24,000 nucleotides of DNA from an uncultured Planctomycetia bacterium (lineage in GTDB: Bacteria > Omnitrophota > Gorgyraeia > Duberdicusellales > 4484-171). Below the pieces are notes generated by a model, which saw only the letters and a list, made by a program, of their open reading frames with translations, was not told the DNA's origin and made no database searches. The first letter of the stretch is position 1, and each line of letters opens with the position of its first letter. This document shows positions 1 through 15,182 of the stretch, piece after piece. Position numbers and translations under genes: made by a program. Location: the NCBI GenBank assembly GCA_964536865.1, contig CAZHYN010000013.1, positions 19,100 to 43,099 of the forward strand, read 5' to 3'.

Positions 1-624
1 ATAATGATTCTTATGAGTAATTTTTTTCTCGGCCCCTGGAGAGACAGTTCTAACTTTTTGTTAAAAATTCTATGGTTTATGATTCTTCTTGGTATAGCTG
101 TAGGGGCATTTTTATCTTTTAAATTATTCATAACTACTCCTGGAGGAAGACGTTGGTGGGATAATGCTAAATTTAGAATGTATATATTTGGGAAAATCTA
201 TAAAAAAATAACTATGCTTAGGTTTGCTTCAATGCTCAATGTGCTTTATCAGGCAGGACTTCCCATTCTTAATATTCTGGATGTTGTAAAAATCACTATT
301 GGGAACGTGGTGTTAGCTAAAGAGTTGGATAATGTAAAAAGGTTTGTAGCTGATGGTAAAGGAATTTCTGGAGGTCTTTTAGGTAGCAAATTATTTCCCC
401 CACTAGTTTCTTATATGGTCTCTGTAGGAGAAAAGGCAGGGGCATTATCTACTATGCTTGATTCTCTATGTGAGTACTATTCCTTAGAAGTAAGAACTTC
501 TCTAAAAAACTTAACCTCTTTGATTGAGCCTATTATGACTTTAGTTTTAGGGGTAGTGATAGGAGGAATGGCTTTAGCGATATTCCTGCCTATGTGGAAT
601 TTGATTTCTATTATCCGAAGATAA
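1..624 (+). CDS. pilC: Type IV pilus / T2SS inner-membrane platform protein, PilC/GspF family, C-terminal part (5' end outside window)
   Basis: Frame 1 is open from base 1 to TAA 622-624. The translation shows a GspF-type repeat (LNVLYQAGLPILNILDVV, SYMVSVGEKAGALSTMLDSLCEYY) and a terminal TM helix (IEPIMTLVLGVVIGGMALAIFLPMWNL). A pilin gene lies 3 kb downstream. Confidence 0.8.
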   Translation: MMILMSNFFLGPWRDSSNFLLKILWFMILLGIAVGAFLSFKLFITTPGGRRWWDNAKFRMYIFGKIYKKITMLRFASMLNVLYQAGLPILNILDVVKITIGNVVLAKELDNVKRFVADGKGISGGLLGSKLFPPLVSYMVSVGEKAGALSTMLDSLCEYYSLEVRTSLKNLTSLIEPIMTLVLGVVIGGMALAIFLPMWNLISIIRR

Positions 625-1434
625 GTGATTTTTGGTTTTTTAATAGGAATAGTTATTCTAATAATTTATATTATTATCTCTTCCTGGTGGTGGAGAAGAA
701 AATTACATTTTTATGTTAAAAAATCTCGAGAAGAGGAAGCTAGACTCATTCATCTAGAGAAAATGGCCTCTTTAGGAACTTTAGCTGCTGGAGTAGCTCA
801 TGAGATTAATAATCCTTTGACCTTTCTTCTTACTAATCTAGGACTCCTTTCTCACTATATAAAAGAGGAGAAGAGAGTCAAAGAAGAGTTACAAAAAGAA
901 ATAAGTGTAATTTTAGATGAGTGTAACGAAGGAGTGAATAGAATAAAGAGGATTGTTCAAGATCTGCTTTCTTTTTCTCACCGCTCACGAGGTAAAAAAG
1001 TTTCTACAAACATCAATGAGTTGCTGGATGTAAGTATAAGAATTCTATGGAATGAGATAAAGTATAAGGTTGATATAGTAAAAAATTATGAAGCAGTAAC
1101 TCCTCTTCGGATAGATCCTAATCAACTAAGTCAAGTATTTTTAAATATAATCATCAACGCTACTCATGCAGTAAAGAATAAAGGGACAATTTTTCTTTCT
1201 ACCCAAGAGAATGAGAAGGAATTTATCATTAAGGTTTCTGATACAGGAGAAGGAATTCCTAAAGAAGTTCTTCCCAAGATTTTTGAACCTTTCTTTACTA
1301 CTAAGGGAGGTACGGGTTTAGGACTCTATGTAAGCAAAAATATTGTGGAGAATATGGGGGGTAGGATAGAAGTAGAAACTCAATTGGGAGAGGGTAGTAC
1401 ATTCACTATTTTTCTGCCTAAAGTTAAAAAATAA
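625..1434 (+). CDS. Sensor histidine kinase (one N-terminal TM helix, HisKA + HATPase_c, no recognisable sensor domain)
   Basis: GTG 625 directly abuts the pilC stop. H-box AAGVAHEINNPL, N-box NIIINATHA, G1 DTGEGI, G2 GGTGLGL. Confidence 0.85.
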   Translation: MIFGFLIGIVILIIYIIISSWWWRRKLHFYVKKSREEEARLIHLEKMASLGTLAAGVAHEINNPLTFLLTNLGLLSHYIKEEKRVKEELQKEISVILDECNEGVNRIKRIVQDLLSFSHRSRGKKVSTNINELLDVSIRILWNEIKYKVDIVKNYEAVTPLRIDPNQLSQVFLNIIINATHAVKNKGTIFLSTQENEKEFIIKVSDTGEGIPKEVLPKIFEPFFTTKGGTGLGLYVSKNIVENMGGRIEVETQLGEGSTFTIFLPKVKK

Positions 1435-1455
1435 TTTCTTTAAGAGAAAAGTGCT

Positions 1456-1809
1456 ATGGGAGTAGAGAAAAGAAAGTATCCTAGGGTTAAGGTTAAGTTT
1501 TCCGTAGAGTATAGGGGGAAGAATGTTTGGCAAAACGCTGAGATTGACAATATCTCCAGAGGGGGGATGTTTATTGTTACGGAGAAGATAGAGCCACCAG
1601 GAACAAATATAGAGCTTATTTTTGAACTAGGAGAAAGTAAGAGGAAGATCCAAGCTCAAGGAGTAGTGGTGTGGACACGTACTCAATCTCAGCACAATCA
1701 TGAAGGTAGGCTTCTCCCTCAGGGTATGGGAGTCCAATTCACCAAAATTTTCCCTGGAGAAGCAGAAAATTTTTTGGCTGATTTAATAGAGAAGTGGAGA
1801 GATGGATAA
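1456..1809 (+). CDS. PilZ domain protein (stand-alone c-di-GMP receptor)
   Basis: Canonical PilZ motifs: RxxxR (RKYPR) and (D/N)xSxxG (DNISRGG) about 22 residues apart, on a roughly 117-aa beta-barrel-sized protein. Confidence 0.8.
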   Translation: MGVEKRKYPRVKVKFSVEYRGKNVWQNAEIDNISRGGMFIVTEKIEPPGTNIELIFELGESKRKIQAQGVVVWTRTQSQHNHEGRLLPQGMGVQFTKIFPGEAENFLADLIEKWRDG

Positions 1810-2374
1810 ACATACTATTCTCGTTGTAGATGATGAGCCTAATATAGTTTCTTCCCTAAAGAGGGTTCTTGCCTCCGAGGATAGAGAGATTTTATCTGCC
1901 TATAGTGCTGAAGAGGCTTGGAGGCTTCTTCAAGAGAAGGGAGAAGTAGAGGTAATTATTTGTGATAATAAATTACCGGGAGCCTCTGGCGTAGAATTCC
2001 TTTCCAAAGTAAAAACTGCTCATCCCCACACAGTAAGAATTCTTATTACTGGTTATCCTGATTTGACCAGTGTTGCAGAGGCAATAGATAAGGCAGGCAT
2101 CTGGCGGTACCTCTTAAAGCCTGTAGAGATAGAGGAGTTAAAAACTTTAGTAAACCAGGCTTTTGGTTACTATAGGATTTTAAAAGAAAATCAAATTCTT
2201 TTTGATATCGTTTGTCAACAAGCGGAGTGGCTTAAGGTATTAAGAGAAAAGTATCCTGAGATTGTGTCCCGGGAAGTAGAAGAAGGGAAGATAATTGATA
2301 TAGAATGGAGAGAAGCTTCTGACACAGTTAGAAAATTCATAGAAAAGTACTACCTTCACAAAAAAGGAGAATGA
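1802..2374 (+). CDS. Response regulator: CheY-like receiver domain plus ~70-aa uncharacterised C-terminal domain (no DNA-binding or GGDEF/EAL motif seen)
   Basis: VVDDEPNI acidic pocket, phospho-acceptor context IICDNKLPGASG, TGY and LLKP signatures. ATG 1802 overlaps the PilZ stop (1807-1809) by 8 nt. Confidence 0.85.
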   Translation: MDKHTILVVDDEPNIVSSLKRVLASEDREILSAYSAEEAWRLLQEKGEVEVIICDNKLPGASGVEFLSKVKTAHPHTVRILITGYPDLTSVAEAIDKAGIWRYLLKPVEIEELKTLVNQAFGYYRILKENQILFDIVCQQAEWLKVLREKYPEIVSREVEEGKIIDIEWREASDTVRKFIEKYYLHKKGE

Positions 2375-3183
2375 AAGAGTTAGAAAAAAGATTGGTAAAA
2401 GAAGGATGGGTTACCTCTGCTCAACTTATAAAAGCTAAGGAAGAGCAGAAGAAAAAAAAGAAGAAATCCTTATTCTCTGTTTTAGTAACTTTGGGATATC
2501 TAAGTGAAGAGGATATTTACCTATTCTTTGCTCAGAGTGCTCAGATACCTTTTGTAAGGCCAGGCGATTATCTTTCAGATGAAGAACTTTTTAATCTTTT
2601 TTCCGAAGACTTCTATCGGGAGCATCTTTTTGTTCCTCTCTTTAGAATAGGAAATACTCTTTACATTGGGACTGCTAATCCCCTGGATACAGAGTTTATG
2701 GATACCTTAAGGAAGCATACTAATTTAGATATCTTTCCTCTATTTGCCTCTCCTTCTTCTATCTTAGAGGCAATAAATCGTGTATTTGGGCCAGAGAAAG
2801 TATACTTACAGTTAGAGGAGTTAGTTAGTTTCTCTCCTTCATTAAGTATACTACCCTTAGGAAGAGAATCTGAAAGGATAGTGATAAATACACCTGTAGA
2901 GTTTAAAGTTATTGACAAGAGGATAACTTTAGCATCTTCTCAATATCTAAAGGGAACTGCTTTGAATATTTCTCAAAGTGGTAAGGGGGTAGGGATAAGG
3001 ACTTTTCTTTTTCTTCCTTCTGGAGCAAAGATTCTTCTAAAGTTTCCTTCATTCGATCCTAATTGTGAATTAGAAGCAGAGATAACCCACTGCAGAATGG
3101 AACAAGGTTATTATTTCTTAGGAGTGAAATTTCTCCAAACAAGAAAAGATTTATTAAGATATTTATTGGAAGAAAAAAAATAA
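2371..3183 (+). CDS. Fusion protein: N-terminal T2SSE_N/MshEN-like domain + C-terminal PilZ domain
   Basis: The N-terminus resembles the GspE/PilB N-terminal domain (LVKEGWVTSAQLIKAKEEQ..., VLVTLGYLSEEDIYLFFAQSAQIPFV). The C-terminus has RxxxR (RESER) and NxSxxG (NISQSG). ATGA start/stop overlap with the response regulator; RBS AAAGGAGA at 2363-2370. Confidence 0.65.
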   Translation: MKELEKRLVKEGWVTSAQLIKAKEEQKKKKKKSLFSVLVTLGYLSEEDIYLFFAQSAQIPFVRPGDYLSDEELFNLFSEDFYREHLFVPLFRIGNTLYIGTANPLDTEFMDTLRKHTNLDIFPLFASPSSILEAINRVFGPEKVYLQLEELVSFSPSLSILPLGRESERIVINTPVEFKVIDKRITLASSQYLKGTALNISQSGKGVGIRTFLFLPSGAKILLKFPSFDPNCELEAEITHCRMEQGYYFLGVKFLQTRKDLLRYLLEEKK

Positions 3184-3225: not shown

Positions 3226-3255
3226 TTGACAGAGCAGAATTTTATATGTTATACT
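3226..3255 (+). promoter_or_regulatory. Putative sigma70-type promoter driving the riboswitch leader
   Basis: TTGACA 3226-3231, 18-nt spacer, TATACT 3250-3255. The predicted start lies about 35-40 nt upstream of the aptamer closing helix. Confidence 0.4.
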
Positions 3256-3296: not shown

Positions 3297-3480
3297 TACT
3301 ACTCGACAAAGGCAAACTCGTGGTAACACGAGGGCGCAAAGCCGTGCGTCCCGCTCTTTCTAAGACCCAGATTAACAGGGGTTTGAAGTTAAAGTGCATA
3401 AGGGATGCAGAGGCAGGTAAACTGCAGGATTTAACTAGAAATATGAAAAGGGCGGGATAGGCAGGTTGCCGAAAGTAGTA
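3297..3480 (+). promoter_or_regulatory. c-di-GMP-I (GEMM-I) riboswitch aptamer with an enlarged P2 arm
   Basis: 3308-3343 AAAGGCAAAC-TCGTG-GTAA-CACGA-GGGCGCAAAGCC matches the GEMM-I 5' core (GGCAAAC, GNRA-capped hairpin, GCGCAAAGCC). 3451-3471 GGCGGGATAGGCAGGTTGCCG matches the 3' core (..GGUAGGUAGC..GGUUACCG). Closing helix is TACTACT 3297-3303 / AGTAGTA 3474-3480. The P2 base TCCCGC(3349-3354)/GCGGGA(3452-3457) encloses about 95 nt. Confidence 0.75.
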
Positions 3481-3494
3481 TTTATTTTTTATTT

Positions 3495-3540
3495 AAGCCG
3501 AACTACTTTAGCCTTTAGGAGAGTAGTTCGGCTTTTTTGT
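3495..3540 (+). terminator. Rho-independent terminator (riboswitch expression platform)
   Basis: Perfect 13-bp stem AAGCCGAACTACT (3495-3507) / AGTAGTTCGGCTT (3522-3534) whose 3' end runs into a T6 tract (3533-3538). Confidence 0.8.
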
Positions 3541-3559
3541 TCTCCGAGAGATAAAAAAC

Positions 3560-3588
3560 TTGACTTACTCTTAAAAAGCTGATATTCT
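3560..3588 (+). promoter_or_regulatory. Possible second promoter immediately upstream of the pilin RBS
   Basis: TTGACT 3560-3565, 17-nt spacer, TATTCT 3583-3588. The -10 is weak, so this is tentative. Confidence 0.3.
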
Positions 3589-3972: not shown

Positions 3973-3995
3973 TAGCTGAGTTCCTAAGACTACAT

Positions 3996-4023
3996 AAACC
4001 CCGCTTTTTTAAAAGCGGGGTTT
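3996..4023. terminator. Bidirectional intrinsic terminator between convergent pilin and GT-C/TPR genes
   Basis: AAACCCCGCTTTT / AAAAGCGGGGTTT palindrome followed by TTTATTATTTTT on the + strand. It overlaps the last codons (KPRF*) of the minus-strand gene. Confidence 0.6.
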
Positions 4024-5901
4024 ATTATTTTTATCTCTAAGAATAAGCTTACTTAAGGAGAGGGCAGGCCTAAATTGAGGGTTAAGACTAATTGTTTTTT
4101 CTAGCTCCTTTAAAAAGAGTGGATTCTTCAATTTCATATAAACCAATGCCAGAGCATAATGAGAATAATACCAGTCAGGTTTAATTTCTATAGATTTCTG
4201 GTAAAGCTGTTGGGCTTTGTGTAAATCTCCCTTTTTCTCATAAATTTTTCCCCATAGAAAGTAAGAGTAGAATTCAAAAGGGTTTATTTCTATAGCTTTT
4301 TTTATATATCTTTCTGCCATAGTTAGCTTATTTTCCTCTATATAGATTCGTGCTAACGCTTGGTAAGCTCGTTCACTGTAAGGATTTAATTTTAGAGCTT
4401 TGTTTAAATAATAAAGAGCCTTCTCTTTATCGTTCTTTTTTTCGTAAAGAGTGGCTAAGTTAGTATAGATCTGATATACTCTTGCTTGGTTAGGTTCTAG
4501 TTTTAAAGCTTCACTTAAATATTTTATTGCCTCATCATATTTTCCTTCCATGAAGTAAGTACCTGCTAAATTAACATATATTCCCGCCTTCCAATCTATA
4601 TCTTTGGTAGAGATAGTCAGAGCCTTAAAAAATATTTTCCTTGCCTTTTTTAAATACCCCTTCTCTTTATAACTTACCCCTAAATTTAGCCAGTTTCCTA
4701 TATGTTGGGGCTCTTTTTCTGTGCCTTTTCTCCACACTAAGGTAGGATAGTTAAGTTGACAATTTCTTTCCACAGTGAATATAGATAGAATGAAGATTAC
4801 TCCTAATGCAGGATACAAAAAGTATCTTTTGTTTTTTATATAAAAATTTTTAAAAACCTCCATCAGAATTATGTATATACCTATACTGGGAAGATAAAAG
4901 TGGTGTTCCATAGCAGGTACTTTTAAGGTCGCATAAAACTTCGGAAGAAGCATTAAGAGATACCAAAAAACCCCTAAACTTAAAAGATATATTCTTTTTC
5001 TTAAGAGTAGAAGAGTAAATACAAGAATAATTATTCCCATCAAAGGAAAAAAACCTTGAGGTTGAAGAATAGAATTTAGCTGAGGGTAATAATGCAGGAA
5101 ATTAAGATTATCGGGAAATAAAAATAATCTCAGATAGAAAAAGCTTACCCAACTTTGAATAAGAATATTAGAAAGCGGACTCCTTAATCCTCCAGGAGTA
5201 ATTCCCTTAAAGAAGGCTTTTTTGTAAAGAAAATAGAGGAGAGAAATAGTGATGAGAGAAAATAAAAGAAAAATATTCTTCTTCTCTTTAAAAGTGAATT
5301 TAAGACTCCTATATTGATAAAGAAGGTAGTGGCCTCCTATCAAAAGCGGAAAACATAGCCCTGTTTCCTTAGTTAGCAGAGAAAATACATACAGTAAACA
5401 ACTTAAAGCATATCTTTTCTTTAAATAAAGTAAGAATCCCCCCAAAATAAAAAAAGTTACCATCAAATCCGACCTACTAGATATGTAACTGACCGCTTCG
5501 GTATTTATAGGGTGAACTAAAAACAAAAGGATTATAAGAAAGGCTAAGGTTTTGGGGGTATCTTTTTTTAGAGAAGTTAATAAAAAGTAGAGAAGAGTAG
5601 CATTTAAGAAGTGAAGAAGAACATTTATGATGCGGTACCCCACAGGGTTAAGACCTCCACCCCAATAATTAAAAGCAAAACTAAGCATAAGAAGAGGTCT
5701 ACACATTCCTTTGGGGATGGGGTAGCTGGTAACATATCCTTTAAAAAACAGAGGGAAGTATTTTGGATTTTTTATGAAAGTATTTTCTTCTATCATATAG
5801 TAGTCATCGAAGATAAAGGGAGCATTAAGAGCACTGCTATAGGTAAGAAGAGAGATAACTACTAAAGAAAGTATTACAAGATAATCAATTTTACTTTTCA
5901 C
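4009..5901 (-). CDS. TMTC/PMT-like GT-C fold glycosyltransferase (polytopic N-terminal domain) fused to C-terminal TPR repeats, paralog 2
   Basis: About 390 aa of hydrophobic helices with the first-loop acidic motif FIFDDYYMIEEN (GT-C DD/DE loop, as in TMTC and PMT/ArnT families). These are followed by about 6-7 TPR units (e.g. AIKYLSEALKLEPNQARVY, ALYYLNKALKLNPYSERAY). GTG start 5899-5901 overlaps the upstream paralog's stop by 11 nt. Confidence 0.7.
   Translation of the reverse strand: MKSKIDYLVILSLVVISLLTYSSALNAPFIFDDYYMIEENTFIKNPKYFPLFFKGYVTSYPIPKGMCRPLLMLSFAFNYWGGGLNPVGYRIINVLLHFLNATLLYFLLTSLKKDTPKTLAFLIILLFLVHPINTEAVSYISSRSDLMVTFFILGGFLLYLKKRYALSCLLYVFSLLTKETGLCFPLLIGGHYLLYQYRSLKFTFKEKKNIFLLFSLITISLLYFLYKKAFFKGITPGGLRSPLSNILIQSWVSFFYLRLFLFPDNLNFLHYYPQLNSILQPQGFFPLMGIIILVFTLLLLRKRIYLLSLGVFWYLLMLLPKFYATLKVPAMEHHFYLPSIGIYIILMEVFKNFYIKNKRYFLYPALGVIFILSIFTVERNCQLNYPTLVWRKGTEKEPQHIGNWLNLGVSYKEKGYLKKARKIFFKALTISTKDIDWKAGIYVNLAGTYFMEGKYDEAIKYLSEALKLEPNQARVYQIYTNLATLYEKKNDKEKALYYLNKALKLNPYSERAYQALARIYIEENKLTMAERYIKKAIEINPFEFYSYFLWGKIYEKKGDLHKAQQLYQKSIEIKPDWYYSHYALALVYMKLKNPLFLKELEKTISLNPQFRPALSLSKLILRDKNNKPRF
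5338..5778. repeat. 441-bp block, copy A, identical to 7313-7753 (direct repeat, offset 1975 bp)
   Basis: Base-by-base comparison of the two stretches found no mismatch. Identity breaks sharply at both ends (5337 c vs 7312 a; 5779 a vs 7754 g). Confidence 0.95.
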
Positions 5902-7870
5902 TTTTTCTGAGGTTATCCTCTATTATCTTCAGAAATTCGTTATCTACTCTAAACCCTAAAGATTTAGCAATCAAAGCATACTTTCTTGCCAAATCCCATC
6001 GGGGAGGAATTAAAGAAGCATAAACTACAGCTAAGTCATTATAAGCAGGGGCAAAACTAGGGTCAATGCTAATTACTTTTTTAAATTCGGAGAGTGCTCT
6101 GCCATCTCCTATTCTTGCATAAAGAGTACCTAAATAGTAATGAGAATTCCGATGCTTGGGATTAAAGTATATTGATTTTTTGTACATCTCTATTGCTTTT
6201 TTATAGTTGTTTTTCTCTTGAAAGATTTGTGCTAAACCATAATAGCCTCCATAGTAAGTAGGATTTATCTGAATTGCTTTTTTAAACATTTCTTTTGCTT
6301 TAAAAAGATTTCCTTCCTTAAGGTAAAAGAAGGCTAAGTTACATCCAGCTTCCACAGAGGCAGGGTAGAGCTGTAGTTCTCTAAGCCAGGCTTCCTCAGC
6401 CTTCTTTTTCTTACCCATTTTTGAATAAATGATCCCTAATAAATTATAACTACCCATAGGCGGAATTTTCACTGATTTGGTAGCATCGTTTATTAACTTT
6501 AACGCTTTTTCGTATTTTCTCTGTTTTATGTAGATGTGCGCTAAATTGCCTCTAGCATTAACTATACTCTCTATCCTATCTGCAGTATTTATTGCTTTTA
6601 TAAATTCTTTTTCTGCTTGGAATGTGGCTCCCATCTTTAGATACACCAGTCCTAACTGATTAAGAATGGTTGCTGATTTAGGGTTTCTCTGTGCAGAGAT
6701 TTTCCAGAAAACTAAGGGATTTCTGTATTCATAGCTTCTAATTAGAGTAAAAGATGCCAAGATAGAGATAATTCCTATAACGAAATAGGTAAAGTACTTG
6801 GTATACTTTAGATAGATTCTTCTTAAGATACTTATCAAAACTATATAGATGCCTATACTAGAAAGATAAAAATGGTGCTCCATAGCAGGGAAGCTAAGCC
6901 GGGCATAAAATTTGGGAAGCAAACCTATAAGCAGCCAGCTTAATCCGATACTTATTAAGAAGTTCTTCTTAATAAAGAGGAGAGCTAAGATAATTAAACC
7001 TACTATTCCTAAGGTTGAGAATAATACAGGGAAATGAAAAAGAGAACCAAACTCCGGAAGATAGTGAATGATATTTAAGGAATGAGGGAGAACGAGTAAT
7101 TTAAAGTAAAGAAGAGTTACTACCGACTGAAGAAGAATGTTTTGGTAGTAAGAACGAGGTATCCTTGCAGGAGTGGAGGAAAAGACCTTCGATTTATAGA
7201 TGAGATACAGTAAAGTAATTAAAACTATTCCTATGTAGACAAACTTTCTTTTCCCTATATCTTTTTTAGAAAGAGGATAGTCTTTTATAAAGTAGATAAA
7301 CTCATAGCTTAATATCAAAAGCGGAAAACATAGCCCTGTTTCCTTAGTTAGCAGAGAAAATACATACAGTAAACAACTTAAAGCATATCTTTTCTTTAAA
7401 TAAAGTAAGAATCCCCCCAAAATAAAAAAAGTTACCATCAAATCCGACCTACTAGATATGTAACTGACCGCTTCGGTATTTATAGGGTGAACTAAAAACA
7501 AAAGGATTATAAGAAAGGCTAAGGTTTTGGGGGTATCTTTTTTTAGAGAAGTTAATAAAAAGTAGAGAAGAGTAGCATTTAAGAAGTGAAGAAGAACATT
7601 TATGATGCGGTACCCCACAGGGTTAAGACCTCCACCCCAATAATTAAAAGCAAAACTAAGCATAAGAAGAGGTCTACACATTCCTTTGGGGATGGGGTAG
7701 CTGGTAACATATCCTTTAAAAAACAGAGGGAAGTATTTTGGATTTTTTATGAAGGTGTTATTTACAATCATATGGTTGTCATCAAATAGGAAAGATCCAT
7801 TTAAGGAAGGTAGGTATATAAGAAAAGATAGACTTGCAAAAATAATTATAAAGATTTTCTCTATTTTCAT
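5891..7870 (-). CDS. TMTC/PMT-like GT-C fold glycosyltransferase fused to C-terminal TPR repeats, paralog 1
   Basis: Same architecture as the neighbour (FLFDDNHMIVNN loop, multi-TM core, TPR tail such as AIEMYKKSIYFNPKHRNSHY). 147 aa are identical to the neighbour and the rest is roughly 35-40% identical by eye. Confidence 0.7.
   Translation of the reverse strand: MKIEKIFIIIFASLSFLIYLPSLNGSFLFDDNHMIVNNTFIKNPKYFPLFFKGYVTSYPIPKGMCRPLLMLSFAFNYWGGGLNPVGYRIINVLLHFLNATLLYFLLTSLKKDTPKTLAFLIILLFLVHPINTEAVSYISSRSDLMVTFFILGGFLLYLKKRYALSCLLYVFSLLTKETGLCFPLLILSYEFIYFIKDYPLSKKDIGKRKFVYIGIVLITLLYLIYKSKVFSSTPARIPRSYYQNILLQSVVTLLYFKLLVLPHSLNIIHYLPEFGSLFHFPVLFSTLGIVGLIILALLFIKKNFLISIGLSWLLIGLLPKFYARLSFPAMEHHFYLSSIGIYIVLISILRRIYLKYTKYFTYFVIGIISILASFTLIRSYEYRNPLVFWKISAQRNPKSATILNQLGLVYLKMGATFQAEKEFIKAINTADRIESIVNARGNLAHIYIKQRKYEKALKLINDATKSVKIPPMGSYNLLGIIYSKMGKKKKAEEAWLRELQLYPASVEAGCNLAFFYLKEGNLFKAKEMFKKAIQINPTYYGGYYGLAQIFQEKNNYKKAIEMYKKSIYFNPKHRNSHYYLGTLYARIGDGRALSEFKKVISIDPSFAPAYNDLAVVYASLIPPRWDLARKYALIAKSLGFRVDNEFLKIIEDNLRKSEK
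7313..7753. repeat. 441-bp block, copy B, identical to 5338-5778
   Basis: See copy A. It encodes residues FIKNPKYFPLFFKGY...TKETGLCFPLLI in both paralogs. Confidence 0.95.
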
Positions 7871-13304: not shown

Positions 13305-13381
13305 CGGGGCGTAGCTCAGGTGGTTTTAAGAGCACTTGGTTCGGGACCAAGAGGTCAGCAGTTCAAATCTGCTCGCCCCGA
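13305..13381 (+). tRNA. tRNA-Pro (anticodon CGG)
   Basis: Cloverleaf read by hand: acceptor CGGGGCG/CGCCCCG, D-stem GCTC/GAGC with a 12-nt loop, anticodon stem CTTGG/CCAAG with loop TTCGGGA (CGG, G37), T-arm AGCAG-TTCAAAT-CTGCT, discriminator A. CCA is not encoded. Confidence 0.9.
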
Positions 13382-13546: not shown

Positions 13547-13908
13547 GGGGGTGAAAGGGCCTCGACTCAATAAGCAGGGAAGGAGTTGCATGCCAGCGGG
13601 TAGACCAGCTGTTTAAGAGGTCTACACCAAATAAAGGCAACAAGCTATGCCTCTACTCCTGCTTACGCAGTTTGTTAAGCAGGGCTCTTAATCCTGTTTG
13701 TCTCTGACGGGATTAAGGGTTCGGTAAGAGAGACTAGAGGTAGATTCTTAACCTTGGGGATTTACCTCGAAAAATCAACAAGGTTGCTTTCTAACAGATC
13801 CTGTCTCTCGGAGCTGTTAGAGAAAAGATCAAAAGAGAGACTAAGCATGTAGTAGGCTCCTCTTTTAGCTTATTGAGGACGCGGGTTCGATTCCCGCCAC
13901 CTCCACCA
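13547..13908 (+). ncRNA. ssrA: tmRNA (SsrA), one-piece, CCA encoded
   Basis: 5' GGGGGTG pairs with 3' CACCTCC, including the G3:U wobble. T-arm GGACGCGGGTTCGATTCCCGCC, then ACCA. PK1-like GTAGACC/GGTCTAC lies before the tag frame GCA..TAA (13637-13678). Helix-5-like CCTGCTTA/TAAGCAGG carries the stop codon. Confidence 0.92.
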
Positions 13909-14011
13909 TTATCTCTTATTTTCTTTTGTTCCTTCCTGATACAATTTTTCTGCTAAGATCTAGTAAATATAGAATTTGGCAAAGAAAGAGTTCTTTTATA
14001 TAATAATTTAT

Positions 14012-14263
14012 ATGCCTATATATCTTTATCGTGTTGATAAAGGGGAGAAAGGGTGTAAATTATGTAAGATAGGATTGGAGGTTCTTCAGAAAGTAGGAGA
14101 AAAACCTCTTAAAAGATGTCCTAAATGTGGAAGTAAGCTTAGAAAAGTATTTTCTACCTTTTCTTTGGGTTTTTCCAAAACAGGGTTGGAAAGAAGAGCA
14201 AAGGAAGCAGGGTTTCATAAGTTAAAGCGAGTAGATAAGGGAAAGTATGAGAAGCTATATTAG
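14012..14263 (+). CDS. FmdB-family zinc-ribbon protein with basic C-terminal extension
   Basis: MPIYLYR...CKLC...LEVLQKVGEKPLKRCPKCGSKLRKVFS resembles the FmdB signature (MPIYEYxC..CG..FE.lq....pl..CP.CG). ATG 14012 is chosen instead of the upstream TTG 13976. Confidence 0.65.
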   Translation: MPIYLYRVDKGEKGCKLCKIGLEVLQKVGEKPLKRCPKCGSKLRKVFSTFSLGFSKTGLERRAKEAGFHKLKRVDKGKYEKLY

Positions 14264-14274
14264 AGACCACTAAG

Positions 14275-14697
14275 TTGTATAGAAAATTATCTACTTATCT
14301 TCTTGAGATTAATAATAAGACAGAGAAGGAAATAAATATTGGAAGACTGGGGAAGATAGAGTTTAAAAAGGGAACCTATCTCTATGTTGGTTCAGCAAAG
14401 AAAGGTTTAGTCTCTCGTCTAAGGAGACATCTATCTAGAAAGAAAAGATTATTCTGGCATATAGATTACTTTCTAAATGAGAAGGAAGTATCTGTAGAGA
14501 AGATTTGGCTTACTTATTTAGATGAGTGTCTTACATCAAAACTTATCTCTGAAAGTGTAGAAGTAGTAAAAGGATTTGGCTCTTCCGATTGTCAATGTTT
14601 AGGACATCTTTTCTACTTAGGAAGAAGTAAAATAAGGAAAAACCTAAAAGACAAACTTAAACTAGAGTCAGTGGGAAAAAGGGATTTGGTTGCTTAG
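14275..14697 (+). CDS. DUF123 / GIY-YIG (Uri) superfamily nuclease-like protein
   Basis: GTYLYVGSAKKGLVSRLRRHL...FWHIDYF and GFGSSDCQCLGHLFY match the DUF123 pattern. The TTG start is uncertain. Confidence 0.6.
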   Translation: MYRKLSTYLLEINNKTEKEINIGRLGKIEFKKGTYLYVGSAKKGLVSRLRRHLSRKKRLFWHIDYFLNEKEVSVEKIWLTYLDECLTSKLISESVEVVKGFGSSDCQCLGHLFYLGRSKIRKNLKDKLKLESVGKRDLVA

Positions 14698-14825: not shown

Positions 14826-15182
14826 ATGATAGAAAGAAGAAAATATCGAAGAGCGAGAGATGGAGCACGAGTTATCTTCAAAATTTTAAATAAGAAGGGG
14901 GAGATAGAACTTGATACTATCGACGTTGGAGCAGGAGGGATGTGCATTCCTTTAAAAGAAAGAGTTAACCCCAACACTCTCATAGAGATAGGATTAATCC
15001 TTCCCGGAGAAAAGAAACCTTTTTACGTATTTGCTGAAGTTAGATGGCAGGCAAGATTACCTAAAAGAGATGATAGAGGTAATTTATATTTTCCTACTGG
15101 GGTAATGTTTCTAAAAATGAATAAAGATGAGAGAAAAAAACTCATCCAGCATATCTACCATTCTACTAGAGAAAAAGAGTAG
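14826..15182 (+). CDS. PilZ domain protein (third in window)
   Basis: RRKYRR (RxxxR) and DVGAGG (DxSxxG variant with G in place of S), in a 118-aa protein. Confidence 0.75.
   Translation: MIERRKYRRARDGARVIFKILNKKGEIELDTIDVGAGGMCIPLKERVNPNTLIEIGLILPGEKKPFYVFAEVRWQARLPKRDDRGNLYFPTGVMFLKMNKDERKKLIQHIYHSTREKE

Follow-up and report, generated by a model that had tools for sequence, protein, structure and literature searches.

A candidate post-translational control cassette at the 3' end of an Omnitrophota type IV filament operon

How might a two-component phosphorelay and cyclic di-GMP (c-di-GMP), a second messenger, both reach a type IV filament machine from within the operon that encodes it? 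The question is raised by four genes at positions 625-3183 of a 24,000-nt stretch of DNA, here called the window (CAZHYN010000013.1, positions 19,100-43,099; assembly GCA_964536865.1), whose host belongs to Candidatus Omnitrophota. These genes follow one for a platform protein of the PilC/GspF/MshG type and encode a histidine kinase (HK), a single-domain PilZ protein, a receiver protein (REC) and a fusion of an MshEN domain, the current Pfam name of T2SSE_N, to a second PilZ domain (MshEN-PilZ). On balance, we hold with moderate confidence that the four genes form the regulatory 3' end of an Omnitrophota type IV filament operon and act post-translationally on its assembly motor.

A cassette within a conserved filament operon

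All Pfam domain assignments in the cassette exceed their gathering scores (22.5 for PilZ, PF07238), which confirms the PilZ, HisKA, REC and MshEN domains named in an earlier, sequence-only reading of this DNA. The tight spacing described there was also recovered at every junction, from the GTG at 625 through the 21-nt gap and the 8-nt overlap to the final ATGA. In the closest relative (L005; loci are referred to by L numbers where they must be told apart), the HK open reading frame (ORF) begins with ATG immediately behind the stop codon of the platform gene, in the very place of the window's GTG, which supports the latter as the start of HK. REC and MshEN-PilZ are each preceded by a good Shine-Dalgarno sequence (GGAG and AAGGAGA, respectively), and the overlap or abutment of these two genes recurs among relatives. 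A scan for promoters and terminators found none that was convincing inside 625-3183, the first strong promoter being that at 3226-3255.

Neighbourhood searches seeded from three of the proteins, MshEN-PilZ, REC and HK, all landed in one operon. Once near-identical loci had been merged, 19 non-redundant loci were obtained, the window included, in which the order is PilM/N, PilO, secretin, coiled-coil protein, TPR protein, ATPase, an AAA22 protein where present, platform protein, a variable insert, MshEN-PilZ and pilin. The platform gene is followed, directly or after the insert, by MshEN-PilZ in all 19 loci, with pilin genes next in most, so that the linkage to pilus genes predicted by the sequence-only reading holds throughout the sample.

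The insert itself varies. It consists of HK-PilZ-REC in four loci, the window among them; of HK, PilZ, REC and one or two small proteins of ~66 residues in nine; of a small protein and REC only in four; and of a small protein only in one, while a single locus has no insert at all. HK and PilZ co-occur perfectly (both in 13 loci, neither in six), and REC is present in 17 of the 19, being absent from two that keep MshEN-PilZ and occurring without HK and PilZ in four. MshEN-PilZ is the invariant core of this arrangement, and HK and PilZ are an optional pair inherited together. The notion of a four-gene module therefore survives in the constant position of MshEN-PilZ after the platform gene and has to be relaxed for HK and PilZ, which are optional, and for the small proteins that relatives add. 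Because seven of the 19 loci came from HK or REC seeds, the share of full cassettes in this sample is inflated.

The genes 5' of the window are supplied by a public contig (L021) that is 100% identical to it over 4 kb. They encode, in order, a PilM/N fusion, PilO, a 154-aa protein, the secretin, the coiled-coil protein, the TPR protein, the ATPase (605 aa, MshEN + T2SSE) and the platform protein, 420 aa at full length; the AAA22 gene is missing from this genome. The operon ATPase is catalytically intact (Walker A GPTGCGKT). As for the pilBTC neighbourhood that had been envisaged, the succession of ATPase and platform genes is borne out; pilT, on the other hand, was found neither in the operon across the 19 loci nor upstream in L021, and in relatives AAA22 may stand between the two genes.

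The nature of the machine was approached through its models. Equivalog models for type II secretion systems (T2SS) and type IV pili score about equally on the ATPase, platform protein and secretin, all below cut-off; the MshL model gives 122.6 on the secretin against a cut-off of 250, and the NCBIfam PilC and GspF models both stay under cut-off on the platform fragment within the window. In relatives, gene set and order are comparable to the MSHA cluster (secretin, AAA, TPR, ATPase, platform). The run of ATPase, AAA22 where present, and platform genes recalls MSHA or T2SS clusters, and the operon as a whole type IV pilus and MSHA clusters. Because the secretion and pilus models score alike and under their cut-offs, we use the neutral name type IV filament system, noting that PilM/N/O, the pilotin-like TPR gene and the major pilin, which has a promoter of its own, are pilus-like.

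Homologues of the cassette proteins point to the same phylum. A word-indexed search returned 16 clusters of MshEN-PilZ homologues, and when 1.84 billion representatives were searched exhaustively with a profile, ~30 clusters of full-length homologues at the 50% identity level emerged; the matches in reference genomes are Candidatus Omnitrophota metagenome-assembled genomes, part of them labelled Planctomycetia. For REC there are ~52 clusters, of which all those with an organism name are Omnitrophica, and for HK at least 120 clusters of short homologues (a lower bound), all organism-named ones being Omnitrophota/Omnitrophica.

The small ~66-aa proteins, found in the cassettes of most relatives and not in the window, have two hydrophobic segments resembling transmembrane helices and occur in one or two paralogous copies (L001, 8609-8812 and 9217-9417; also L003, L007-L011, L014, L015, L017-L020, L023 and L024). 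They had no match in Pfam or NCBIfam, and were seen in 10 of 11 loci with AAA22 (MshM/ExeA-like) and in none of four loci without it.

Candidate c-di-GMP sites and the two-component pair

The AlphaFold2 (AF2) model of MshEN-PilZ, built from the family alignment, is of good overall quality by its scores (predicted local distance difference test, pLDDT, 83.9; predicted template modelling score, pTM, 0.78) and comprises ND0 with four helices, ND1 of alpha/beta type, a disordered linker (residues 142-167) running into the RxxxR motif, and a C-terminal half formed by a beta-barrel of six strands with a C-terminal helix (residues 169-267, pLDDT ~90). In Foldseek searches, the MshEN half matched the N-terminal domain of MshE best (5HTL, TM-score 0.73), together with that of Xanthomonas citri PilB (7LKO) and that of XpsE, and the PilZ half matched the PilZ domains of BcsA, MotI/DgrA, PP4397 and Alg44.

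Within that PilZ half, the two c-di-GMP motifs read RESER (165-169) and NISQSG (199-204), and none of R165, R169, S201 and G204 varies among the 15 members of the family alignment. RxxxR is present in 16/16 fusions checked and (D/N)xSxxG in 13/16, the latter being intact in 10/10 of the HK-containing cassettes checked. The small PilZ protein has RKYPR and NISRGG, the two motifs being conserved in eight orthologues, and scores 68.4 on TIGR02266, just under the cut-off of 68.7. The earlier statement that two of the four proteins are PilZ proteins with intact motifs is in line with these data.

The MshEN domains gave a different result. Wang et al. 2016 described the c-di-GMP site of MshEN as two 24-residue motifs and supplied a relaxed search pattern (PMC5013675), used here as [RKPN]hGxxhhxx[GAS]hhxxxxhxxxhxx[QNKRYWST]. 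It matched none of 15 fusions and none of nine operon-linked ATPases of relatives, nor was there a match in the window genome's own ATPase. In the fusions, the Gly at motif position 3 is lost from both halves in 15/15, and position 1 fails in motif 2 of 14/15; in motif 1 it fails in roughly half of the fusions, that of the window among them. The helix spacing and the five-residue spacer are kept in the MshEN domains of both fusion and ATPase, RLG having become xLE, xLK, SLF or SLY. Changes such as G11V, R38G and G40L are those to which the loss of c-di-GMP binding by XpsE has been attributed (PMC5013675). The motif test does detect real motifs, since unlinked second ATPases of two relatives pass it, one matching both motif halves (L014) and the other one half (L016).

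Because the MshEN motifs fail in fusion and ATPase and RxxxR is kept, the PilZ parts alone are credible as c-di-GMP sites, and, to judge from sequence, PilZ domains rather than MshEN most plausibly read c-di-GMP in this operon. When the motif test failed, the MshEN half of the fusion was accordingly dropped as a second c-di-GMP site. The proposal that MshEN-PilZ is a c-di-GMP receptor is thus credible for its PilZ half, with both motifs intact, and not for its MshEN half, which lacks the c-di-GMP motif. No paper was found on an MshEN-PilZ fusion under that name or synonyms, and PilZ is not among the MshEN fusions listed in Wang et al. 2016 or its supplement (PMC5013675).

As for the second ATPases just mentioned, three loci carry a second secretin pair a few kb downstream (L014, 6767-13834; L016, 13712-20792; L022, 12831-14843). 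In L014 and L016 this pair is followed by the second ATPase, with canonical MshEN motifs in both halves and in one, respectively, from which it follows that one genome can carry a motif-bearing and a degenerate MshEN ATPase.

Turning to the kinase, HK has a single hydrophobic segment (residues ~1-23), predicted to form one transmembrane helix before DHp, and all of its catalytic landmarks are present (His59 in the H-box, N-box 174, G1 206 and G2 229). Neither HK nor its eight orthologues had a Pfam match to a sensor domain, or to anything beyond HisKA and HATPase_c; in these orthologues the H-box is invariant and the transmembrane sequence variable. Hydropathy and Pfam therefore agree with the initial description of a kinase with one transmembrane helix and no sensor domain. 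Its top NCBIfam match is NF038348 'T2SS_HK', over the catalytic core only and with 206 bits where the cut-off is 450, which hints that kinases tied to type II/IV filament loci have already been curated elsewhere.

In REC, the residues D10, D11, D55, T83 and K106 are invariant among 33 homologues, as are N130, L133, P152 and Y183 of its tail in the same alignment. The AF2 model (pLDDT 83.3) has the canonical (beta-alpha)5 fold, with alpha-5 running on as a 40-residue helix to ~150 and then two short helices, and its core resembles receivers of the HupR/NtrC and RpfG types in Foldseek and profile searches. Pfam returned no match to HTH, GGDEF, EAL, HD or ANTAR domains even at E<=1, and neither Pfam nor the PDB yielded a sequence relative of the tail. 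The NCBIfam model NF053512 for REC-HD-GYP proteins aligns, through its positions 1-151 of 422, to REC residues 6-157, that is, to receiver and linker. The original account of a receiver with an unassignable ~70-aa tail is thus upheld in that no output-domain motif is present, and amended in that about half of the tail aligns with the REC-plus-linker part of NF053512. We also considered REC as a truncated HD-GYP enzyme of the RpfG type, and rejected this because NF053512 covers only receiver and linker and HD residues and an HD domain are lacking.

As for a source of the messenger, no GGDEF, EAL or HD-GYP domain was found in window ORFs of at least 90 aa, consistent with the earlier report that the window holds no diguanylate cyclase or phosphodiesterase. 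Four relatives have a REC-GGDEF-like gene a few kb 3' of the operon, all on the minus strand (L017, 15044-16003; L018, 10446-11384; L023, 11078-12016; L024, 13774-14730), with no equivalent in the window. Their signatures read GSDDF, QDDDY or GGDDF and not GG(D/E)EF, and the two that were scanned, in L017 and L018, have a partial GGDEF match. To judge by these altered signatures they are probably non-catalytic, and we did not retain them as a c-di-GMP source, as they are not callable as cyclases.

The window contains a third PilZ gene, far from the pilus operon and adjoining a radical SAM gene (14826-15182, plus strand; single-domain, 118 aa, Pfam 44.4 bits). Its RxxxR motif reads RRKYR, and the second motif, DVGAGG (Ser to Gly), is partly degenerate.

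Proposed action on the assembly motor and rival explanations

Since no DNA-binding, sigma-54 or enzymatic output domain was found in the four proteins, the control they exert would be post-translational, and a switching of pilus assembly by the cassette at this level is plausible. We propose that c-di-GMP would be read by the PilZ domains and relayed to the motor via the MshEN-like module. MshEN-PilZ is a free-standing copy of the ATPase ND0/ND1 joined through a flexible linker to a canonical PilZ barrel, and could serve as a c-di-GMP-gated adaptor or decoy, its MshEN-like module docking on the ATPase or at the cytoplasmic ring of PilM/N and so gating pilus extension. Two precedents suggest this by analogy: PilZ of Xanthomonas citri contacts the N-terminal, MshEN-like domain of PilB, and GspE and EpsE dock through their ND1 domains on GspL and EpsL, which are paralogues of PilM (PMC8389850).

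HK and the small PilZ protein would be an optional add-on that delivers a second signal. HK, by its gene geometry translationally coupled to the platform protein, might sense through the small PilZ as a trans-acting c-di-GMP sensor, or might respond to the state of the platform or of the pilin pool in the membrane; it would then phosphorylate REC, whose helical tail may be a protein-protein output, and phosphorylated REC could modulate MshEN-PilZ through that tail. A REC:MshEN-PilZ complex is suggested by the overlap of their genes. The claim that phosphorelay and c-di-GMP sensing converge post-translationally on PilB/PilC is thereby borne out in part, by the lack of DNA-binding or enzymatic output and by the pilus linkage, whereas the convergence on the motor is something that we infer.

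A more specific form of this scheme joins two ideas, namely that c-di-GMP sensing has moved to MshEN-PilZ as a decoy and that HK is gated by the small PilZ protein. MshEN-PilZ would compete with the ATPase at the PilM/N site, or bridge it there, only when bound to c-di-GMP, and the small PilZ would act as a detachable c-di-GMP sensor of HK. Were it such a sensor, the phosphorelay would lie downstream of c-di-GMP, in a chain from c-di-GMP through PilZ, HK and phosphorylated REC to MshEN-PilZ. Taken jointly, the two ideas seem to us rather unlikely.

Several points weigh against the post-translational scheme as a whole. Every step beyond the presence of motifs in the PilZ domains is our inference from sequence, and the loss of the MshEN motifs predicts, and does not prove, a loss of c-di-GMP binding; the NCBIfam motif model related to MshE still gives 34.4 bits on the fusion against a cut-off of 38. 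In three of the four cassettes with only a small protein and REC, the PilZ motif of the fusion has changed from Gly to Ala, and c-di-GMP binding may for that reason not be universal. The co-occurrence of HK and PilZ could reflect clade history and not function. The window is without a diguanylate cyclase, and the REC-GGDEF-like genes near the operon in relatives are degenerate. Finally, because T2SS models score as well as pilus models, the filament could be a pseudopilus.

The same genes could also be wired differently. If REC were a CheY-like output, as PilG and PilH are, and acted directly on the motor or on its polarity, the HK-REC relay would be independent and run in parallel to two separate PilZ brakes or clutches responding to c-di-GMP, neither signal passing through a REC:MshEN-PilZ complex. 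A receiver without enzymatic or DNA-binding output would suit such a role, for which Myxococcus xanthus PixA, a PilZ plus REC protein in Frz-independent motility control, provides a precedent (PMC8316039); moreover, the parts of the cassette can work apart, since REC and MshEN-PilZ each occur without the other partners (REC without HK and PilZ in four loci, MshEN-PilZ without REC in two). However, the overlap or abutment of the REC and MshEN-PilZ genes is conserved, and the conserved REC tail argues for a dedicated partner over a generic CheY surface, so that we regard a parallel relay as fairly improbable. Alternatively, MshEN-PilZ could be a constitutive chaperone or scaffold of the ATPase in which c-di-GMP binding is weak or vestigial, the two-component genes controlling something else. 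This would account for its invariance and its place among structural genes, for the Gly-to-Ala decay in three loci, and for the likeness to Pseudomonas aeruginosa and Xanthomonas citri, in which PilZ is a chaperone or adaptor of PilB (PMC11461919, PMC8389850). Yet chaperone-type PilZ proteins have lost the very motifs (PMC8389850) that the fusions retain, with RxxxR in 16/16 and the full motif in 13/16, and a role as mere scaffold is in our view quite unlikely.

The cassette might instead control protein secretion, were the machine a type II secretion-like system. The ATPase, platform protein and secretin score as well or better on GspE, GspF and GspD than on PilB, PilC and PilQ, the pilin of L001 matches Pfam T2SSG, and the 'T2SS_HK' model is the top NCBIfam match of HK, albeit far under its cut-off. 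PilM, PilN and PilO in place of GspL and GspM, together with the TPR pilotin-like gene, speak for a pilus; no set of GspH-K minor pseudopilins was found adjacent to the operon, and a strong promoter and terminator of their own serve the one or two pilin genes, as is typical of a major pilin. These features make a secretion system markedly unlikely. Lastly, the tail of REC could be an ANTAR-like RNA-binding antiterminator acting at the terminator that precedes the pilin gene, and Foldseek does align the full REC model with the 190-aa protein EutV (REC-coiled-coil-ANTAR; TMq 0.70). That alignment, however, has a root-mean-square deviation of 8.3 A and 18% identity; no ANTAR domain was found in Pfam at E<=1, in profile searches or in tail-only PDB searches; and REC does not track the riboswitch described below, being present in 17/19 loci when riboswitch and terminator are present in four. 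We consequently set this candidate aside as exceedingly improbable, and retain control of the assembly motor by the cassette as our preferred reading.

The pilin leader and the place of the operon among known systems

The cassette is followed by the pilin gene, whose leader combines two promoter-like sites, a probable c-di-GMP-I variant aptamer and a terminator-like hairpin (Table 1).

Table 1. Features of the cassette and of the pilin leader, in window coordinates
Feature	Position	Strand	Details
Platform protein, C-terminal 206 aa (PilC/GspF/MshG type)	4-624	+	T2SSF 86 bits; gene begins upstream of the window; ends TAA
HK	625-1434	+	GTG start, gap 0 after the platform stop; HisKA 44.7 and HATPase_c 96.4 bits
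PilZ, single-domain, 117 aa	1456-1809	+	21-nt gap after HK; PilZ 57.6 bits; RKYPR, NISRGG
REC, 190 aa: receiver and ~70-aa helical tail	1802-2374	+	8-nt overlap with PilZ; Response_reg 82.6 bits
MshEN-PilZ fusion, 270 aa	2371-3183	+	ATGA overlap with REC; MshEN 74.8 and PilZ 30.0 bits
Sigma-70-like promoter, strong	3226-3255	+	TTGACA-18-TATACT with upstream TG; 11/12 matches; kept in L005, L008
Probable c-di-GMP-I-GGC variant aptamer	3302-3474	+	~96-nt P2-loop insertion; RF03167 58.7 bits against gathering 59 (E-value mode)
Terminator-like hairpin, probable expression platform	3496-3541	+	12-bp stem AGCCGAACTACT/AGTAGTTCGGCT, then T-run; read from sequence; partly kept in L005, L008
Second promoter-like site	3560-3588	+	TTGACT-17-TATTCT with TG; 9/12 matches; TTGACTT and TATTCT kept in three loci
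Major pilin or pseudopilin, 122 aa	3604-3972	+	Class III signal peptide; N_methyl 30 bits; PilA and GspG models under cut-off
Strong terminator after the pilin	3994-4025		

The canonical c-di-GMP-I model (RF01051) covers only the 5' half of the aptamer (3301-3379, 37.1 bits against gathering 35), and across the loci no canonical class I match over the pilin leader was found beyond this half-length one. Orthologous aptamers free of the insertion score 68 (L005/L006), 59 (L008) and 73.7 (L024) bits on RF03167. The hairpin at 3496-3541 was missed by our terminator scan, since the latter is limited to loops of 8 nt. The riboswitch is present in four of the 19 loci (the window, L005/L006, L008 and L024) and was found in none of the other 15, and the layout of promoter, aptamer, terminator, second promoter and pilin is kept in three. 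As the second promoter-like site follows the terminator hairpin, the pilin may, from the order of these elements, be transcribed from two promoters with only one under riboswitch control. That a riboswitch acts on the pilin transcript, as the sequence-only reading had it, is consequently supported by its position ahead of the pilin and tempered by its assignment to the GGC variant, with a putative ligand, by its presence in 4/19 loci and by the second promoter downstream.

Beyond the pilin lie two tandem overlapping genes on the minus strand (4009-5901 and 5891-7870) whose products are large, with a hydrophobic N-terminal half and TPR repeats. Over their N-terminal ~229 residues the two are 76% identical (175/229), as would be expected had they duplicated recently. 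In L017, too, the pilin genes are followed by two similar genes for TPR proteins, and the window pair may have a part in the pilus, such as modifying pilin. Further downstream, a tRNA gene (13305-13381) stands just 5' of a full-length tmRNA gene (13547-13908, plus strand, 167.8 bits), and after these come a zinc-ribbon ORF and a DUF123 ORF (13976-14697).

The control of pilus ATPases by c-di-GMP is an established theme (MshE, PilB-PilZ-FimX, PlzR, PixA), and all the domains concerned are well known. The closest parallels to the operon are the PilB-PilZ-FimX system of Xanthomonas citri and the PilZ/PlzR-PilB systems of Pseudomonas aeruginosa, in which, likewise, the N-domain of the ATPase lacks the c-di-GMP motif and input comes through accessory proteins (PMC8389850, PMC11461919). 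In both, a PilZ-fold protein binds this N-domain. The MshEN half of the fusion matches that of Xanthomonas citri PilB (7LKO), and since its single chain unites two folds that contact each other in Xanthomonas citri, the fusion lends support to the idea of a widespread contact between PilB-N and PilZ. The cassette differs from these systems in having no FimX-type GGDEF-EAL receptor, in carrying the MshEN-like module as a separate protein fused to PilZ, and in placing a two-component pair inside the operon; its PilZ motifs, moreover, are canonical, whereas those of the Xanthomonas citri and Pseudomonas aeruginosa adaptors are lost. With Vibrio cholerae MshE, the fusion shares a domain family and fold (5HTL, TM-score 0.73), and the order of secretin, MshM-like AAA, TPR, ATPase and platform genes resembles that of msh clusters, with no dedicated retraction ATPase in the cluster. 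Both 24-residue motifs are, however, degenerate in the operon ATPase and in the fusion, and direct activation by c-di-GMP in the manner of MshE is for this reason unlikely.

Myxococcus xanthus PixA combines a canonical PilZ domain with a phosphorylatable REC and no DNA-binding output in the control of pilus-dependent motility, although it is a single fused orphan protein acting on polarity (PMC8316039); in the present operon, PilZ and REC are separate genes in an assembly operon, accompanied by a kinase and MshEN-PilZ. The PilS/PilR and Pil-Chp systems also feed a phosphorelay into type IV pilus function. The contrast drawn with them by the sequence-only reading was upheld, as none of the four proteins has a sigma-54 or DNA-binding domain: REC lacks the sigma-54 AAA+ and HTH parts of PilR, HK has one transmembrane helix and not the six of PilS, and the operon is without the CheA, MCP and CheW of Pil-Chp, a che cluster being nearby but separate in L018 and L023. 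PilS senses pilin within the membrane, which offers a possible analogy for a sensor-less, membrane-anchored HK.

At the level of the transcript, a class II c-di-GMP riboswitch controls the pilin gene pilA1 of Clostridioides difficile. The window similarly has a GEMM-type aptamer directly 5' of its major pilin gene; it differs in that this aptamer is probably the c-di-GMP-I-GGC variant (RF03167, putative ligand), has a terminator and a second promoter behind it, and occurs in only four of the 19 loci.

Three forms are known in which c-di-GMP controls type IV pilus ATPases, by direct binding to MshEN (Vibrio cholerae MshE), through PilZ-FimX adaptor chains (Xanthomonas), and at the transcriptional or riboswitch level. 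The present operon suggests a fourth arrangement, in which the MshEN domain of the ATPase has decayed, a paralogous MshEN-PilZ protein is encoded next to it, and an HK-REC pair with a new output tail is embedded in the operon. The MshEN-PilZ fusion family appears to be undescribed, as do the constant position it takes in a pilus operon of Omnitrophota with a decayed-MshEN ATPase, the conserved tail of REC, and the co-inherited pair of a sensor-less HK and a PilZ protein. Current models are not overturned by these findings. Should the joint scheme of a decoy and a PilZ-gated kinase prove true, it would mean a PilZ-gated two-component system wired straight into the pilus motor. The recurrent pairing of the GGC-variant riboswitch with this pilin gene beside PilZ proteins narrows the search for the ligand of that variant. 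Omnitrophota are uncultured and often ultra-small. Type IV pili are discussed in published genome surveys of this group, and a phylum-wide cassette on its main pilus operon accordingly provides a concrete handle on how Omnitrophota decide on pilus extension.

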